From: an uncultured Candidatus Saccharibacteria bacterium
Lineage (GTDB): Bacteria; Patescibacteriota; Doudnabacteria; UBA920
Reading direction: 5' to 3'
Assembly: GCA_964436545.1 (NCBI GenBank)
Contig: CAYTCJ010000002.1
Location: forward strand, 110,738-174,737
DNA: 64,000 nt
Below the pieces are notes generated by a model, which made no database searches, was not told where the DNA came from, and saw nothing but the letters and a program-made list of their open reading frames with translations. Positions 3,114-59,180 of the stretch are shown here, in pieces (the first letter of the stretch is position 1; each line of letters opens with the position of its first letter). The position numbers and the translations under genes are program-made.

Positions 3114-3219
3114 ATTCCTAAAATTAATAATTTCAATCCTGGTGTCCAAATGCATCCAAATTGTGAACTAAGCGCGGTTTAGTGGCATTCGGATGTTAAT
3201 TCGTAGCATTTGGATCGGA

Positions 3220-3756
3220 TTATACTTGTTTAATAATTTTTCTAAACACTTCAGCTTCCAAACGCACTTTTTCCAAAGCATCGTAAGGATTTTTTTGTTT
3301 AAATTTAAAGTAATCAAAAAAAGTATTGGCCGTAGGCATTTTTTTTAAACCGAAATTTAAAGTAAAAATATAACCCAAAGTCCACAAATCCAAAACATGA
3401 GAATCGTAATCAAAGGCCACCAAAGCTTTTTTAAATGCCATTTTTAAAAATAACAAATTGGTTAAATTGTGGGTGGCCAATAAATACTGCTTGCCAAAAA
3501 CTTTATGAAATTGCTTAATGGCATCGTAAATTTTAGGACTTTTTTTTAAAGTTTCCGGAGGAATCCTTAAAAGTTTACTGTGTTCCCAAATTACATTATC
3601 CAAATAACTTACCCGCACATACGAATTAAAAAAACCTTTTTCCAAAAGATTATCTTTATCTAAAACAATGGCGGATAATTGTAAAATGTTATCCTTATCG
3701 GTATCGTTTCCGGTAGTAATTAATTCAAAAAATAAAATATCTTTAATAAATTTCAT
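3220..3756 (-). CDS. DnaQ-like exonuclease paralog with a degenerate catalytic motif I (FELITTGND instead of D-x-E)
   Basis: Same architecture and same C-terminal motif (YDALEKVRLEAEVF) as the neighbouring exonuclease. The Exo I acidic pair is replaced, so it may be catalytically inactive. Confidence 0.5.
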   Translation of the reverse strand: MKFIKDILFFELITTGNDTDKDNILQLSAIVLDKDNLLEKGFFNSYVRVSYLDNVIWEHSKLLRIPPETLKKSPKIYDAIKQFHKVFGKQYLLATHNLTNLLFLKMAFKKALVAFDYDSHVLDLWTLGYIFTLNFGLKKMPTANTFFDYFKFKQKNPYDALEKVRLEAEVFRKIIKQV

Positions 3757-3843
3757 ATTTCTAATCTACCAATTAAACAAATCTGGGATGTCAACAAATA
3801 AAATTTGTAGAGATTTGTATATTTGTTTCATTCGTATATTTGA

Positions 3844-4341
3844 TTATTTCCACGCCTTAACTTTTTCTTCCCCTTTCGTGTAATTTTTTATTAAATCAAT
3901 AATCAATACTCCATTGGTGTGGTCAATTTCGTGCTGAGCCACTCTGGCTATCCAACCATCATCGGTAATTTGAATTTTTTTCCCTTCTGCATCCTGCGCT
4001 TCAATGACTACTTGAATCGGTCTTTTTACCATACCATACACCCCAGGGATAGATAAACAACCTTCTTCAATTTCTCCCTTTTTCCAACTTTTTTTAACTA
4101 TCTTGGCATTATATAAAGGGAATAAACCTTCACCGCTTTTTTCCAAATTAATAATTATAAGTTTAACCGATTTTCCCACCTGTGGAGCAGCGAGACCAAT
4201 CCCGTCCGCATCGCGGACAGTTTCGATCATATTATTGGTCAGATCTATCAGGGCGGGGGATAACGGAAAAACCACCGGATCAGTCGGTTTTCTTAATATT
4301 TCATTAGGATAGGTTAAGATGGGTAAAATCATAAATTGCAT
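3844..4341 (-). CDS. def: Peptide deformylase
   Basis: Def motifs GLAAPQVG, EGCLSIPG and QHEIDH are all present. 165 aa. Confidence 0.9.
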   Translation of the reverse strand: MQFMILPILTYPNEILRKPTDPVVFPLSPALIDLTNNMIETVRDADGIGLAAPQVGKSVKLIIINLEKSGEGLFPLYNAKIVKKSWKKGEIEEGCLSIPGVYGMVKRPIQVVIEAQDAEGKKIQITDDGWIARVAQHEIDHTNGVLIIDLIKNYTKGEEKVKAWK

Positions 4342-4348
4342 CTTAAAA

Positions 4349-4630
4349 TTAATTTTTTTGCTCCTGATTGCGCTTTTTTACCAAATAAGAAAACAGTTTT
4401 CCCGGAGTTTGAATATTTTTATTTTCCAAAACTTCTCCCATAATTTTTCTTAAATAGTCGTGATGATATCTCGTAGCCATACCCAAATACAAACCAAAAT
4501 GCCGACGATCGTTAAATTTTACCGACAACTCTTCCGCAAGCAAATGCGCAGGGGAATGCAAATGCCGGTTAGGTTTGGTGCGAGTGCTGACTTTGGATAA
4601 TTTTTTTGTAATTTTACCAAGGGCTTCCAT
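4349..4630 (-). CDS. Hypothetical basic protein (93 aa)
   Basis: ORF immediately upstream of def on the same strand. Lys/Arg-rich. No family recognised. Confidence 0.4.
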   Translation of the reverse strand: MEALGKITKKLSKVSTRTKPNRHLHSPAHLLAEELSVKFNDRRHFGLYLGMATRYHHDYLRKIMGEVLENKNIQTPGKLFSYLVKKRNQEQKN

Positions 4631-4637
4631 TTCTCAA

Positions 4638-4880
4638 TTATATCAGGACTTACACACTGAGCCAAGTTCAACAAGAGCTTGATTTGGTCTGAGTTCGGGC
4701 TTAGCCCGAACTTTAAGACCAAATCATCACGATCCAGGCATTTTCTGAGGATTTTTGGAGACGTAGTCTGACTACGGCGACAAAAACCTTGAAGAAAATA
4801 ACGAAGAAATTGGCCGGAGCCACTTTAAGGGTCGGGCTTTGCCCGCCCTATAAAGTGGCGATGCGGAAGTCCTGATATAA
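4638..4880. ncRNA. Candidate structured RNA (riboswitch-like leader) or MITE-like element bounded by a 14-bp perfect inverted repeat
   Basis: TTATATCAGGACTT (4638-4651) is the exact reverse complement of AAGTCCTGATATAA (4867-4880). Three perfect nested hairpins lie inside (4683-4723, about 4762-4776, 4818-4860). GC content is well above the flanks. Only spurious ORFs overlap. It lies between divergent genes. Confidence 0.4.
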
Positions 4881-4921
4881 TAAAACTTCAAAAAAAGCTA
4901 TTAAACAAAGCATTTTTAGGC

Positions 4922-4927
4922 TATAAT
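4922..4927 (+). promoter_or_regulatory. -10 hexamer TATAAT 7 nt upstream of ATG 4935 (leaderless-type promoter)
   Basis: TATAAT at 4922-4927, ATG at 4935-4937, no Shine-Dalgarno sequence. A second extended -10 (TGATATAAT) at 4872-4880 overlaps the right arm of the inverted repeat. Confidence 0.35.
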
Positions 4928-4934
4928 ATAAGTT

Positions 4935-6269
4935 ATGCAACAAATTGACATTGCGGGCTTAAAACTTAATCAACTTAGCAAAACCGATTTGCTAACCAGG
5001 CTATTAAAAGAACTTCGGGCTAATCATTCCATTTGGCTTACCACCGTGTACTCGGAATTTTTATACGCTGGGCTCTGTGACCCAAAAATTATGGGGCTGT
5101 TAAACCAAGCTGATATTGCCATACCCGATGGCATAGCGATGTTTTGGGCAAAACGCTTTTTATACCTCCCGTTTACCGCCAAAACTTATTTGGGTAAAAT
5201 TTTTGAAGCTATTTGGCAAGCCGGCTATTCTTTATTGGCCATTATTTTTTACAAAAAATGGATCCTTTCCGCCTTGCCGGAAAAAATTGTGGGTGCAAAT
5301 TTAATTTGGGATTTAGCCAAACTGGCTAATGACAACCATTTATCCATTTACCTATTGGGTGGATTTGGCGACACTCCAGAACTTGTCAGAAAAAAACTTA
5401 CAACTTACAACTTAAAACTTAAAACTTATACCTCCAATAAACACCCAAGTGATACAACTATAATTAATGACATTAACCAAGCATCGCCCGACATTCTTCT
5501 GGTAGCTTATGGACCAATAAAACAAGAGCAGTGGATTTTAGAAAATCGTAATAAATTACCATCGGTTAAATTGGTGGTAGGGTTGGGTGGAACTTTTGAT
5601 TATCTGGCGGGCCGGCGCCTAAGTCCGCCTGAGTGGATAAGACGCGTAGGCCTAGAATGGCTTTTTCGGCTCATTACTCAACCCCACAGAATAACAAGAA
5701 TTTATAATGCCACGATAGGTTTAGTCAATTTATTAATTCATTATAAAGTTTTTACTTCACTACCCTTAAGACCCAATGTGGCAATTATTATTTTAAACAA
5801 TAAAAATCAAATCTTGCTTTGCGAACGAAATACCCATAACCACGAAGTGGATATTATCAGCACTCGCGAAGCCTTAACGCAAACCAACTATTGGCAATTA
5901 CCCCAAGGGGGGATTGATGCCCACGAAGACCTCGTTGGGGCTGCAAGACGGGAAGCCAGAGAAGAAACTTCACTTACTAATTTACAAGAGCTCTATATTT
6001 CTCCTCATACTCATACTTACTTTTGGAATAATGCTTTAAGAAATTTTAGGAAAAATAATCGCCACAAAAACCGCGGGCAAATTCAGAATCTGGTTTACTT
6101 GAAACATTTAGGACCAGACACGGAAGTTCAAATTGATAATCATGAATTTTCCAATTACCAATGGACGGACATAAATGCTTTAGACAAAACCATCCATCCG
6201 GAGCGAAAAACCCTTACAGCTATTGTGCTAAAAGATTTGAAAGAAATGCAAGAAAAAGGTATAATATAA
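4935..6269 (+). CDS. WecB/TagA/CpsF-family glycosyltransferase fused to a C-terminal NUDIX hydrolase domain
   Basis: The central region (VVGLGGTFDYLAGRRLSPPEWIRRVGLEWLFRL) matches the TagA/WecG fold family. The C-terminal part carries a NUDIX box (GGIDAHEDLVGAARREAREETSL). Confidence 0.7.
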   Translation: MQQIDIAGLKLNQLSKTDLLTRLLKELRANHSIWLTTVYSEFLYAGLCDPKIMGLLNQADIAIPDGIAMFWAKRFLYLPFTAKTYLGKIFEAIWQAGYSLLAIIFYKKWILSALPEKIVGANLIWDLAKLANDNHLSIYLLGGFGDTPELVRKKLTTYNLKLKTYTSNKHPSDTTIINDINQASPDILLVAYGPIKQEQWILENRNKLPSVKLVVGLGGTFDYLAGRRLSPPEWIRRVGLEWLFRLITQPHRITRIYNATIGLVNLLIHYKVFTSLPLRPNVAIIILNNKNQILLCERNTHNHEVDIISTREALTQTNYWQLPQGGIDAHEDLVGAARREAREETSLTNLQELYISPHTHTYFWNNALRNFRKNNRHKNRGQIQNLVYLKHLGPDTEVQIDNHEFSNYQWTDINALDKTIHPERKTLTAIVLKDLKEMQEKGII

Positions 6270-34850: not shown

Positions 34851-35200
34851 ACCGGACCGGCAACCAATAGCATAGCCAAGGCTTGCGAGGCATCGCGTTG
34901 TTTTTGAGCAGTCCGATTGTCTTCATTTTGCTTTTTTTGCAACGCTTCTTCTTCGGGAGAACACTTGGGCATTTCTCCGTTTGGCAAAGCTGGTTTAGAT
35001 GAATAACAGACTGACATATAATAATCTCTATCGGCTTTGGTAAACACCCAGGTTTTAAGGGCTAAATTTAAAAGCATAATCGCCCCCACTACCACAATAA
35101 TTAGCGAAATAACCGAAACCAAATAAAGATAGGCCTTTTTTAAACTCATAGAATTATTGAGCAAAATTGACAAAAACGACGAAAATGACAAAATTATCAC
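34811..35200 (-). CDS. Small 2-TM membrane protein, paralog B (C-terminal PVWWGHWRLAKKEV)
   Basis: Same architecture and motif as paralog A. The pair is inserted between rplK and rplA. Confidence 0.45.
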   Translation of the reverse strand: MIILSFSSFLSILLNNSMSLKKAYLYLVSVISLIIVVVGAIMLLNLALKTWVFTKADRDYYMSVCYSSKPALPNGEMPKCSPEEEALQKKQNEDNRTAQKQRDASQALAMLLVAGPVWWGHWRLAKKEV

Positions 35201-35247
35201 TGCATTTCATTTTTGTCATTCTTGTTCATTTTTTTGATTTTTGTCAT

Positions 35248-35670
35248 TTAATTAACTACCTCTACTCCCATACTTCTGGCGGTACCCGCCACAATTCTTT
35301 CCGCAGCCGAAATATCATTGGCGTTTAAATCAGGCATTTTCTTTTCGGCAATTTCCGTAATTTGCTTTTTGGTAATCTTGCCCACTTTATTGGCTAAAGG
35401 GTTAGCGCTCCCTTTGGGTATGCCAATAGCCTTCATAATTAAATTCGCCACTGGCGGAGTTTTTAAAATAAAACTAAAAGACCTGTCTTCGTAAATGGTC
35501 ATTTCCACCGGAGTAAGCATATCCCCGCCTTGAGTCTTATCGTTAAATTCCTTAACAAATTGTGCAATGTTCACACCGTGGGGCCCAAGGGCGGTACCCA
35601 CTGGTGGGGCTGGAGTTGCTTTACCGGCCGGAAGCTGTAATTTTAATACTGTCTTAATTTTCTTTGCCAT
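35248..35670 (-). CDS. rplK: Ribosomal protein L11
   Basis: [35 protein letters not shown] is the L11 signature. 140 aa. Confidence 0.9.
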
Positions 35671-52594: not shown

Positions 52595-54133
52595 TTAGGC
52601 TAATTTTTGTTTCAACAGTTCATTAATTTTCTGCGGATTCCCCTTCCCTTTCAGCTCCTTCATAGTTTGTCCCACCAAAAACCCAAAACTTTTTTGCTCT
52701 CCGCCTTTATAATCCGAAACGGCTTTTGGATTATCTGTCATTACCTTATCAATTGCCAATGCAATCACTGCATCATCACTTACTTGTTTTAAACCCAAAT
52801 CCTCCACAATGTTGGAAGGATCGCCACCTTTTTCAAACATTACTTTAAACACTTGTTTGCCGGCAGAACCGGAGATTTCACCGGTTTGAATCATTTTTAA
52901 AAGTTCGGCAAAATTTTCCGCATCCACTCGTGAATCCGCCGGGTTTAAAAGCTGTTGATTTAACAAAGCGCTAAATTCCCCCAAACACCAATTCACGGCT
53001 TGTTTGATAATTGCCTGTCTGCCTGTAGGGGAAGCCATTGGCTTCCCGTTTTCTGGGCGGGCAATGCCCGCCCCTACATCTACATTCATCCATTCATCAA
53101 CCTCACTCACTACATTTTCAAAAAAAGTTGCCATTTCTTTCCAAGCAATTAAATTTTCCACATCGGCCTTAGGCAAACCGTATTCATTTAAAAATCTCTG
53201 TCTTTTTTGTGCGGGCAACTCCGGCATTTTACTTTTAAGCTCGCCTAAATACTCTTGAGTAAAATGTAAAATCGGCAAGTCAGGATCCGGAAAATACCGG
53301 TAGTCATTTGCCTCTTCTTTGGTTCTTTGTTCTACGGTACAACCTTGTTTTTCATCCCACCCCATAGTTACTTGCTTAGGCATGCCACCGGACTTTAAAA
53401 TTTCTATTTGGCGGGCAATTTCGTAATCGATGGCATTTTGCGCAAACCGAAAAGAATTAATATTTTTTACTTCCACTTTATATTTAGGCAAAGTGGTTTC
53501 TCCGGGTTTTCTCACGGAAATACTGGGTTCACAGCGCATAATGCCTTTTTCCATATCACAAGACGAGGCACCTAAATACTTTACAATATTTTTTATTTCC
53601 GATAAAAACGCGTAAGCTTCCTCTCCACTACTTATTTCCGGCTCCGTAACAATTTCGAGTAGCGGAGTGCCGGCACGATTATAATCTACCAAAGAATACG
53701 GCAAACCTTCGGGGTGAATATTCTTTCCCGCATCTTCTTCCAAATGAGCACGGGTAATATTTACTCTTTTTACTTTCCCGTTGACTTCAATATCTAAAAA
53801 ACCACTCCTAGCAATTGGTTTATCAAATTGGGAAATTTGGTAGCCTTTAGGAAGGTCGGGATAAAAATAGTGCTTACGGTCAAACTTGCTCCACTCGTCT
53901 ATTTGGCAATTTAAAGCCAACCCCACCATAGCGCTAAGCCTGATGGCCTCTTTATTAGCCACAGGCAAAGTACCAGGCTGACCTGTGTTGACCTCGTCAA
54001 TATCTACATTCGGATCTGCTTGGTCCGGATTATTTGGCGCTATGCCAAACATCTTAGATTTTGTCGCAAGCTGAATGTGGATTTCAAAGCCAATAACTGG
54101 CTCATACTCGGTTGATGCTGGATATGTTTTCAT
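52595..54133 (-). CDS. gatB: Glu-tRNA(Gln)/Asp-tRNA(Asn) amidotransferase subunit B
   Basis: GatB N-terminal catalytic region (PVIGFEIHIQL) and C-terminal YqeY-like tail. 512 aa. Confidence 0.9.
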   Translation of the reverse strand: MKTYPASTEYEPVIGFEIHIQLATKSKMFGIAPNNPDQADPNVDIDEVNTGQPGTLPVANKEAIRLSAMVGLALNCQIDEWSKFDRKHYFYPDLPKGYQISQFDKPIARSGFLDIEVNGKVKRVNITRAHLEEDAGKNIHPEGLPYSLVDYNRAGTPLLEIVTEPEISSGEEAYAFLSEIKNIVKYLGASSCDMEKGIMRCEPSISVRKPGETTLPKYKVEVKNINSFRFAQNAIDYEIARQIEILKSGGMPKQVTMGWDEKQGCTVEQRTKEEANDYRYFPDPDLPILHFTQEYLGELKSKMPELPAQKRQRFLNEYGLPKADVENLIAWKEMATFFENVVSEVDEWMNVDVGAGIARPENGKPMASPTGRQAIIKQAVNWCLGEFSALLNQQLLNPADSRVDAENFAELLKMIQTGEISGSAGKQVFKVMFEKGGDPSNIVEDLGLKQVSDDAVIALAIDKVMTDNPKAVSDYKGGEQKSFGFLVGQTMKELKGKGNPQKINELLKQKLA

Positions 54134-58455: not shown

Positions 58456-59180
58456 TCTTTTTTTTTGAGGAGGAGGGCTAGAGCTTGCCCCGTACTTGAT
58501 ACGGGGGGTGAGCTATCTATCTTTTCCCCTCTTTTCCAAAGAGGGGTTAGGGGAGTTAATTACTTCTAGCATTCTCTGATAAACTCCTTCTATATTTTTT
58601 ATCACATCAATATTCTGAAACCTAATAACTTTAATACCAATCAATTTCAAATATTCAGTTCTTTGTTTATCGGCTTTAATCAGACTTTCCTCAAAATGAT
58701 GTCCTCCATCTAACTCCACAGCTAACTTTTTTTCTGGACAATAAAAATCTAAAATATAATTGCCTATACCAAACTGCCTAAAAAATTTACAACCTTTAAT
58801 TTGTCTATTCCTTACAATATTCCAAATTTTCCGTTCTGGTTCTGTTAAATTTTTCCGCAACTTTCTTCTTAAATCTTTATTTTTAGCAATATTACTTATC
58901 AACATAACTCCCTCCAAATAACTCCCTCCAACTCCCTCTTTGGAAAAGAGGGAGGGTAAGACAATGTATTTTGTAGATCCTCTCTTTTCCAAAGAAGGTG
59001 GTTAGGAGATTCCTGTTCCCTCTCTTTTCCAAAGAGAGGGTTAGGGTGAGTTAGCTGTCTTCTTCCCCACTTTTCCAAAGCATGCCCTGAGCTTGCCGAA
59101 CGGGAGAGGGCTAAAGCTTAACCTGTACCTGATGCGGTTTGCATTCCATACCTAGTGGGCTTGCCCTGAGATAATTGATT
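58456..59180. repeat. Hairpin-repeat array surrounding the DUF559 gene, with five or more copies of an about 30-bp unit CCCTCT(C)TTTCCAAAGAG(A)GGGTTAGGG(G)GAG in both orientations, plus GAGCTTGCC x3
   Basis: Copies at about 58529-58562, 58933-58972 (inverted), 58976-59008, 59015-59050 and 59063-59085. About 35-bp direct repeats GTGAG(C/T)TA(T/G)CT...TTCCCC(T/A)CTTTTCCAAAG lie at 58500-58545 and 59046-59082. GC content is elevated. Confidence 0.75.
58513..58992 (-). CDS. DUF559 endonuclease-domain protein (Vsr/restriction-endonuclease-like fold). Both ORF ends are encoded by flanking hairpin repeats
   Basis: The core (LDFYCPEKKLAVELDGGHHF...D...VIRF) matches DUF559. The N-terminal MEKRGS...LFSKEGVGG and the C-terminal EKRGKDR are translations of CCAAAGAGGGG repeat units. 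The likely real start is MLISNIAK. Confidence 0.65.
   Translation of the reverse strand: MEKRGSTKYIVLPSLFSKEGVGGSYLEGVMLISNIAKNKDLRRKLRKNLTEPERKIWNIVRNRQIKGCKFFRQFGIGNYILDFYCPEKKLAVELDGGHHFEESLIKADKQRTEYLKLIGIKVIRFQNIDVIKNIEGVYQRMLEVINSPNPSLEKRGKDR

Follow-up and report, generated by a model that had tools for sequence, protein, structure and literature searches.

Between two divergent genes of an uncultured bacterium lies a GC-rich segment filled with hairpins and closed by an inverted repeat, and the question is whether it is an RNA that serves one of its neighbours or the product of a mobile element. The window, meaning the whole 64,000-nucleotide stretch of DNA that was analysed, has relatives whose sequences place the organism in Candidatus Doudnabacteria / Patescibacteria. 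The first-pass annotation had offered both readings, and had correctly set the segment between a def-containing operon on the minus strand and a TagA-NUDIX gene on the plus strand. The neighbouring genes are as follows.

3844-4341, minus strand: def
4349-4630, minus strand: 93-aa protein without a Pfam family, first gene of the def-containing operon
4935-6269, plus strand: WecG/TagA glycosyltransferase fused to NUDIX (Pfam E-values 3.9e-39 and 2.5e-17)

On the minus strand the 93-aa ORF is followed by def and then by two RNase T-type exonuclease genes, while on the plus strand WecG/TagA-NUDIX is followed by a PQ-loop protein and then by GluRS. The 93-aa protein has 39 homologues at an E-value of 1e-5 or below and is always directly upstream of def in Doudnabacteria-like genomes. 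The pair formed by the 93-aa ORF and the divergent TagA-NUDIX gene is syntenic in many relatives.

The closing repeat had been described as a perfect inverted repeat of 14 bp, and TTATATCAGGACTT (4638-4651) is indeed the exact reverse complement of AAGTCCTGATATAA (4867-4880). The perfect repeat is really 15 nt long (ATTATATCAGGACTT, 4637-4651, and AAGTCCTGATATAAT, 4867-4881) and extends at 90% over 20 nt. By itself, a perfect inverted repeat of 14 nt would not be unusual in the AT-rich DNA of the window; one at 50-500 nt spacing arose in 20 of 60 first-order Markov simulations of it. The significance of the repeat comes from the folding score of the segment and from its position exactly at insertion ends that are defined independently by relatives. 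Three perfect hairpins had also been reported, nested within the repeat. All three are present, but they stand side by side within the closing repeat, together with a smaller one.

4663-4681: small fourth hairpin between the arms
4680-4726: hairpin 1, TGATTTGGTCT-ga-GTTCGGGC-tta-GCCCGAAC-ttta-AGACCAAATCA
4741-4797: hairpin 2, a central imperfect palindrome with the core GTAGTC-t-GACTAC and 28-nt arms that are 71% complementary; also in the MFE structures
4819-4859: hairpin 3, GCCACTTTAAGGGTCGGGC-ttt-GCCCGCCCTATAAAGTGGC

Hairpins 1 and 3 have a common core, CGGGC-ttn-GCCCG, in the same orientation (4696-4708 and 4833-4845). Folding gave an MFE of -115.5 kcal/mol (z = -11.5) for the plus strand and -113.2 kcal/mol (z = -11.2) for the minus strand, and the native folding energy was matched by none of 200 shuffles. 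Pairing is almost purely Watson-Crick (85 of 89 pairs on the plus strand, 85 of 91 on the minus strand), and therefore both strands fold equally well. The loops of the main hairpins are 3 nt long, and from the sequence such pairing and loops appear to fit DNA palindromes better than a selected RNA. A foldback of the whole element was considered and rejected, as beyond the terminal 14 nt the left half matches the reverse complement of the right half no better than shuffles do. The description of the element as GC-rich holds (47.6% GC against 38.6% in the window), as does the lack of a credible ORF: none with a start codon lies inside the element, and the longest stop-free frames, of 64 and 52 codons, have no real homologue.

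Relatives with the same gene pair show where the element begins and ends. In four of them, from Candidatus Doudnabacteria and similar (L003, L004, L013 and L025), about 68 nt separate the two start codons in one compact layout: ATG, 6 nt, ATTATA, about 40 nt that include a GCTAttAAAc box, G(C/G)TATAAT, 6-7 nt, and ATG. Once 4643-4877 (233 bp and one TA) are taken out, the window aligns to all four without a gap at the junction. The sole gap lies further downstream, where the distance from the tagA TATAAT box to the ATG differs by 1 nt in the relatives. The gap-free junction thus identifies the element as an insertion specific to this lineage. That it was gained here and not lost elsewhere rests on parsimony, and on these four more distant relatives because the site in the nearest outgroup (L001) is rearranged. 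The parts of the insertion and the sites compared are listed here.

4641-4642: left copy of the duplicated TA target (basis: single TA in empty sites)
4643-4875: inserted element proper, 233 bp, non-coding (basis: deletion alignment)
4643-4656, plus strand: left terminal inverted repeat, TCAGGACTTACACA, 9 nt perfect and 12/14 overall
4862-4875, minus strand: right terminal inverted repeat, which reads TCAGGACTTCCGCA on the minus strand
4876-4877: right copy of the duplicated TA target (basis: single TA in empty sites)
Filled site, window: ATTA-TA-[ TCAGGACTT...AAGTCCTGA ]-TA-TAAT
Empty site, L004: ATTA-TA-TAAT
Empty site, L025 and L013: ATTA-TA-CAAT

Both terminal inverted repeats, with the consensus TCAGGACTT(A/C)C(A/G)CA, begin exactly at the insertion boundaries that the empty sites set. 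The target is the palindrome ATTATATAAT, entered at its central TA, and TA now stands on both sides of the element. In the relatives this palindrome is the place where the -10 box of the 93-aa/def operon, on the minus strand, overlaps a plus-strand TATAAT. The 15-nt perfect repeat is made up of 9 nt of the element and 6 nt of the duplicated TA and palindromic target.

We conclude that the element is probably a non-autonomous, transposon-derived, MITE-like insertion, placed by cut-and-paste in the manner of IS630/Tc1-mariner elements. Bacterial MITEs typically have inverted repeats and TA at their termini and duplicated target sites, and some carry promoters directed outward (PMC2229807). For IS630/Tc1-mariner transposases, as described for ISY100, TA is almost the only site of insertion and becomes duplicated, and their mini-elements require only the terminal repeats (PMC2170065). 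The element is short and non-coding (233 bp), has terminal inverted repeats at the ends of the unit, and shows a duplicated TA when filled and empty sites are compared. The earlier suggestion of an IS630/Tc1-like MITE therefore stands for the repeats at the boundaries, the TA duplication and the precise empty sites, and is not borne out, in the sequence searched, for the multi-copy property. The other genomic copies by which that suggestion was to be judged did not appear, with one copy in the 64-kb window and none in 30 fetched loci. Searches of the window and all loci with the repeat arm (two or fewer mismatches) and by blastn at word size 7 returned only self-matches and same-species contigs. 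Among JGI metagenome contigs, a pattern with both 11-nt ends intact (TATCAGGACTT-N{200,230}-AAGTCCTGATA) found no genuine second copy; its two matches both lie in unrelated coding DNA and are about what chance would give. The same end pattern found none in viral contigs, and BLASTN at a distant setting found none in plasmids and phages. No copies annotated as spurious ORFs were recovered when the two longest frames were searched against sets of 5.8 billion and 1.84 billion proteins, the one chance match having E = 3e-4 and 26% identity. No transposase or recombinase was found among the 25 window ORFs that were Pfam-scanned, a set that takes in every large ORF up to about 8 kb from the element. 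We know of no autonomous element with matching repeats.

Two properties of the element itself speak against a MITE: its GC content is above that of the host and, at 233 bp, it exceeds the typical length, bacterial MITEs being typically shorter than 200 bp and AT-rich (PMC2229807). Membership in a MITE family is unproven because neither a second copy nor a partner transposase was found in the 64 kb of genome searched. We therefore describe the element as a MITE-like solo insertion, with no named family, since its size, repeats and TA duplication agree with that class and its single copy in the sequence searched does not. A literature search on MITE-like elements in the candidate phyla radiation (Patescibacteria) found essentially nothing. 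If the reading is correct, the locus is a clean filled-versus-empty-site example of a TA-duplicating MITE-like element in a genome of this group. It is an ordinary kind of feature and opens no major questions.

The distribution of the element is narrow. It is seen only within the same species, in L009, where it is identical, and in L012, whose neighbouring protein shares 97% amino-acid identity with that of the window. It is absent at the orthologous locus from the relative with 85% identity and from every more distant relative, where the flanking genes are conserved. Between the window and L012 the element is 96.9% identical, and the neighbouring genes 88.8-94.0%. The three differences within the element are the loop substitution A4670G, a change of TTA to TAA in the hairpin 1 loop, and one of GA to TAAA in the hairpin 1 stem, which in L012 is perfect over 23 bp; in this single strain comparison none of the three is compensatory. 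Divergence from L012 at third codon positions decreases steadily in the direction of the element, from 30% in an exonuclease gene through 14.5% in def to 9.7% in the 93-aa ORF, and the element itself differs by about 2%. High identity between strains was considered as a sign of element function and rejected, as the low-divergence tract also spans the adjacent 215 nt of coding DNA (4416-4630), which hold 2 differences; all but two of the 17 differences in the 93-aa ORF lie at or below position 4415. Over the sequence compared (3215-4792) the pattern appears to be that of a recent recombination tract that ends near or in the element, and it would fit a young insertion spread by recombination. 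The element is likely to be recent, given its presence in one species-level lineage and the very low divergence of the tract between two strains.

A search among TagA homologues for the right half of the element in the second strain turned up none with an identity of about 97%. Short-read contigs that belong to the same species break inside the element, L009 ending at 4765, L012 ending at about 4792 and L026 starting at 4861, so that 4793-4860 are spanned by the window's own assembly only. Candidate causes of these breaks are low coverage at GC-rich hairpins, population heterogeneity and a repeated sub-module.

A different origin for the same insertion has also to be weighed. The element could be a foreign or locally generated palindromic fragment, joined by illegitimate recombination at TA microhomology or by break repair in an AT-rich palindrome, in which case the palindromic target would itself account for part of the terminal repeat. 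In favour of such an origin, only one copy is present in all sequence searched, 6 of the 15 perfectly repeated bases derive from the target palindrome ATTATATAAT, the GC of the element is 9 points above the host, and the low-divergence tract around it in the window and L012 points to recent recombination. We nevertheless consider this origin unlikely, given that a 9-nt perfect (12/14) repeat lies exactly at both boundaries, with a chance of about 4^-9 for the 9 nt alone, and that a clean 2-bp TA duplication is the signature of staggered transposase cleavage (PMC2170065).

The TGnTATAAT noticed earlier in the right arm is present as TGaTATAAT at 4873-4881 on the plus strand, and its mirror image lies in the left arm (4645-4637, minus strand). 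The promoter-like features of the region are these.

4637-4665, minus strand: promoter-like site of the 93-aa ORF/def operon (promoter scan, 10/12 matches and TG)
4873-4881, plus strand: outward extended -10, TGaTATAAT, in which TG is the repeat end, TA the duplication and TAAT the flank
4920-4927, plus strand: resident TagA-NUDIX promoter box, GCTATAAT, 7 nt before the ATG at 4935; outside the element and untouched

The def-operon site takes its -35, TTGGCT (4665-4660), from inside the element and its TG from the repeat end, with a 17-nt spacer. Its -10, TATAAT (4642-4637), consists of flank and duplicated TA and is followed by the ATG 6 nt downstream. This arrangement, TTGGCT-17-TG-n-TATAAT, was the best promoter-like site of the region in the promoter scan. 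The right-side TGaTATAAT was left unreported by the scan because its -35 is poor. In the four relatives with the compact layout, the ATTATA box 6 nt from the ATG of the 93-aa ORF is conserved, and so is the TagA box, as G(C/G)TATAAT 6-7 nt before its ATG; the TagA box is conserved in L001 and L002 too. A TATAAT 6-7 nt ahead of the start codon is conserved at each of the two divergent genes, neither of which has a Shine-Dalgarno sequence, in the window (4628-4642 and 4920-4937) as in L003, L004, L013 and L025. This suggests leaderless mRNAs for the def operon and TagA-NUDIX in these Doudnabacteria; that of the def operon is probably leaderless because its ATG is only 6 nt from the -10. In a genome of the P0005 lineage (L019, 2828-2945), the TagA promoter box is separated from the ATG by about 100 nt of additional sequence, which holds two hairpins (CCCGCCAAAATTTTGCGGG and TGTCCAACCATACTTGGACA) and is a true 5' leader for TagA, unlike the arrangement in the window.

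A riboswitch, leader or stable small RNA closed by a P1 stem had been the other proposal for the element. The two arms that would form this P1 stem are -10 boxes facing outward, so that transcripts from them start outside the element, which would, as judged from predicted promoters only, lie upstream of the transcription starts and not in a leader. Rfam gave no match at the gathering threshold in the whole window and nothing credible at the locus at an E-value of 10 or below, the best sub-threshold match being SpF25 (29.9 bits against a gathering score of 48). No tRNA or tmRNA was found. The conservation and compensatory changes that an RNA should show in relatives are likewise missing, as the element is absent from the orthologous intergenic region outside the species and none of the changes in the strain pair is compensatory. 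The riboswitch or leader reading thus fails because there is no Rfam match, the pairing is strand-symmetric, the loops are of 3 nt and the promoters face outward, and the absence from relatives also counts against a stable small RNA.

In a more general form, the element would be transcribed as a structured RNA, either a leader of about 240 nt for the def operon or an independent small RNA, with the hairpins as functional RNA helices. This form gains from the very high predicted stability (z about -11) and from a minus-strand promoter-like site that reads into the element, the weak TTAATA-16-TATTAT at 4904-4877, which would serve as the leader promoter. A transcript starting near 4870 would, on the other hand, lose most of the 5' arm of the closing stem, and the fold is the same on both strands. 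No terminator was found by scan after any main hairpin, the one terminator-like match being the small stem at 4663-4681 near the left end. The identity of 96.9% between strains, against 89-94% for neighbouring genes, could be read as selection on an RNA, but it is not specific to the element and reflects the recombination tract; the strain differences amount to two loop substitutions and one uncompensated stem change. With no Rfam match and with the element missing outside the species although the flanking genes are conserved, we regard a structured RNA as improbable. Readings as a retron, omega-RNA, integron attC or 6S, SRP or RNase P RNA were set aside, given the lack of an Rfam match, the absence of the element in relatives, and the lack of a reverse transcriptase, TnpB/IscB or integrase among the scanned neighbours.

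More exotic roles have a very small probability, namely that the element is a mobile promoter cassette or switch, either flipped or forming a cruciform bound by a host factor, or that its interior is a new mobile structured RNA. Were the switch real, one strong -35/extended -10 would shift between the leaderless def and TagA-NUDIX operons, in a reduced genome with few regulators. Hardly credible is an inverton in the strict sense, in which a site-specific recombinase flips the 233-bp segment. The flip would carry TTGGCT, the one good -35, over from the def operon to TagA-NUDIX and toggle expression between these divergent operons. In its favour, the segment is short and lies between inverted repeats and divergent genes, an outward TGnTATAAT stands in each arm with a -35 at 17 nt on the left end only, and three independent short-read contigs end inside the element. 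Yet all three assemblies that cover the left half show one orientation and continue beyond the repeat for 115-140 nt with no branch, and the contig ends (4765, about 4792 and 4861) are not at the inner edges of the repeats, where inversion heterogeneity would break a de Bruijn graph. A recombinase gene was found neither within about 8 kb nor among the other ORFs scanned, and the comparison with empty sites accounts for the repeat as transposon ends and palindromic target.

The MITE-like insertion can be set beside several known systems. RUP of S. pneumoniae, which depends on IS630-Spn1, and the mini-elements of ISY100 are likewise small and non-coding with terminal inverted repeats, and IS630/Tc1-mariner MITEs share with it the duplicated TA, the AT-rich and roughly palindromic target and the intergenic location (PMC2229807, PMC2170065). 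RUP differs in its length of 107 bp, its approximately 108 copies and its repeats, which match the resident IS630 (PMC2229807), whereas the element here has 233 bp, a GC content above that of the host, three internal hairpins, one copy and no known partner IS. Correia/NEMIS elements of Neisseria are also flanked by TA, bounded by inverted repeats and found in promoter regions, and have putative divergent outward promoters and an RNA that folds into long hairpins (PMC2229807); at its two ends, the element here also restores or creates promoters that face outward. Correia elements differ in their length (105-155 bp), 26-bp repeats, IHF site and hundreds of copies, and have no sequence similarity to the element. 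By analogy, the element may be described as RUP/IS630-Spn1-like in its movement and Correia-like in its remodelling of promoters. Invertons of the fimS type resemble it as short segments between inverted repeats with promoter parts beside regulated genes; here, by comparison, no recombinase is nearby, a second orientation was not seen, and the repeats are the boundaries of a target-duplicating insertion. IS200/IS605-derived PATEs and REP-like repeats have similar subterminal hairpins in the same orientation near both ends, as the element does. To our knowledge PATEs and REP-like hairpin repeats have neither terminal inverted repeats nor a target duplication, whereas the element has both.

For the MITE-like insertion we propose that the TA in the middle of ATTATATAAT was entered by the segment with the help of a transposase acting in trans, from an element not seen in this sequence. 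The duplication of the TA leaves a complete TATAAT on either side, and the last bases of the element (TCA / TGA) give each TATAAT the TG of an extended -10. The left interior may now supply the -35 (TTGGCT, 17-nt spacer) of the def-operon promoter, which would thereby be rewired and probably kept or strengthened, not destroyed. Preservation of the promoters could account for the tolerance of an insertion at this site. With the donated TG and -35 and an untouched TagA box, the insertion is probably neutral or mildly activating for the def operon. The locus would thus illustrate how two divergent promoters whose -10 boxes overlap can both survive an insertion there through a duplicated TA. The internal hairpins appear to be palindromes at the level of DNA; rather than an RNA fold under selection, they may represent modules of the parent element that bind protein or allow its ends to be recognised. 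The practical lesson is mostly one for annotation: in these genomes, an intergenic island rich in hairpins and with an extreme folding z-score calls for comparative support before a riboswitch or small RNA is named.

The intergenic site has received a different insertion in relatives. A second inverted-repeat-bounded element, of the 'GACAAAA' family, occupies the same site in L001, L024 and L027-L029, the next lineage (85% and 78% identity), and in L002, and the window has a copy of this family elsewhere.

35166-35248, window: 'GACAAAA' family copy
2780-2935, L002: 'GACAAAA' family copy
about 2870-2945, L001: 'GACAAAA' family copy
about 225-310, L024: 'GACAAAA' family copy
L027-L029: 'GACAAAA' family copies

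From the different element at the same site and the copy in the window it follows that small palindromic insertions move in these genomes, and the site between the 93-aa ORF and TagA appears from these sequences to be a repeated target for them. The 'GACAAAA' family is built of repeated (A/T)TGACAAAA motifs, and may represent either a further MITE family or clustered operator sites. The window and L002, a distant relative, share a 25-mer of the family, TGACAAAAACGACGAAAATGACAAA, without a difference, and the L002 copy holds a nested GC-rich hairpin module.

Palindromes also occur at two other places in the window. A DUF559 endonuclease-domain ORF (58513-58992, minus strand; Pfam E = 5e-32) lies amid several copies of the palindrome CCCTCTTTTCCAAAGAGGG and related GGGTTAGGG(G/T)GAG motifs (58470-59130), the only other site in the window with inverted repeats of at least 14 nt at 50-500 nt spacing. 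Two neighbouring perfect hairpins, GGGAAGCC-att-GGCTTCCC and GGGCGGGC-aat-GCCCGCCC, each with a stem of 8 bp and a loop of 3 nt, occur at 53028-53075 within gatB (52595-54133, minus strand), where the sequence encodes the linker of the two GatB domains. The pair may be an in-frame palindromic insertion. The second gatB hairpin and hairpins 1 and 3 of the element have a common core, CGGGCnnnGCCCG, found three times in the window against 0.04 expected.
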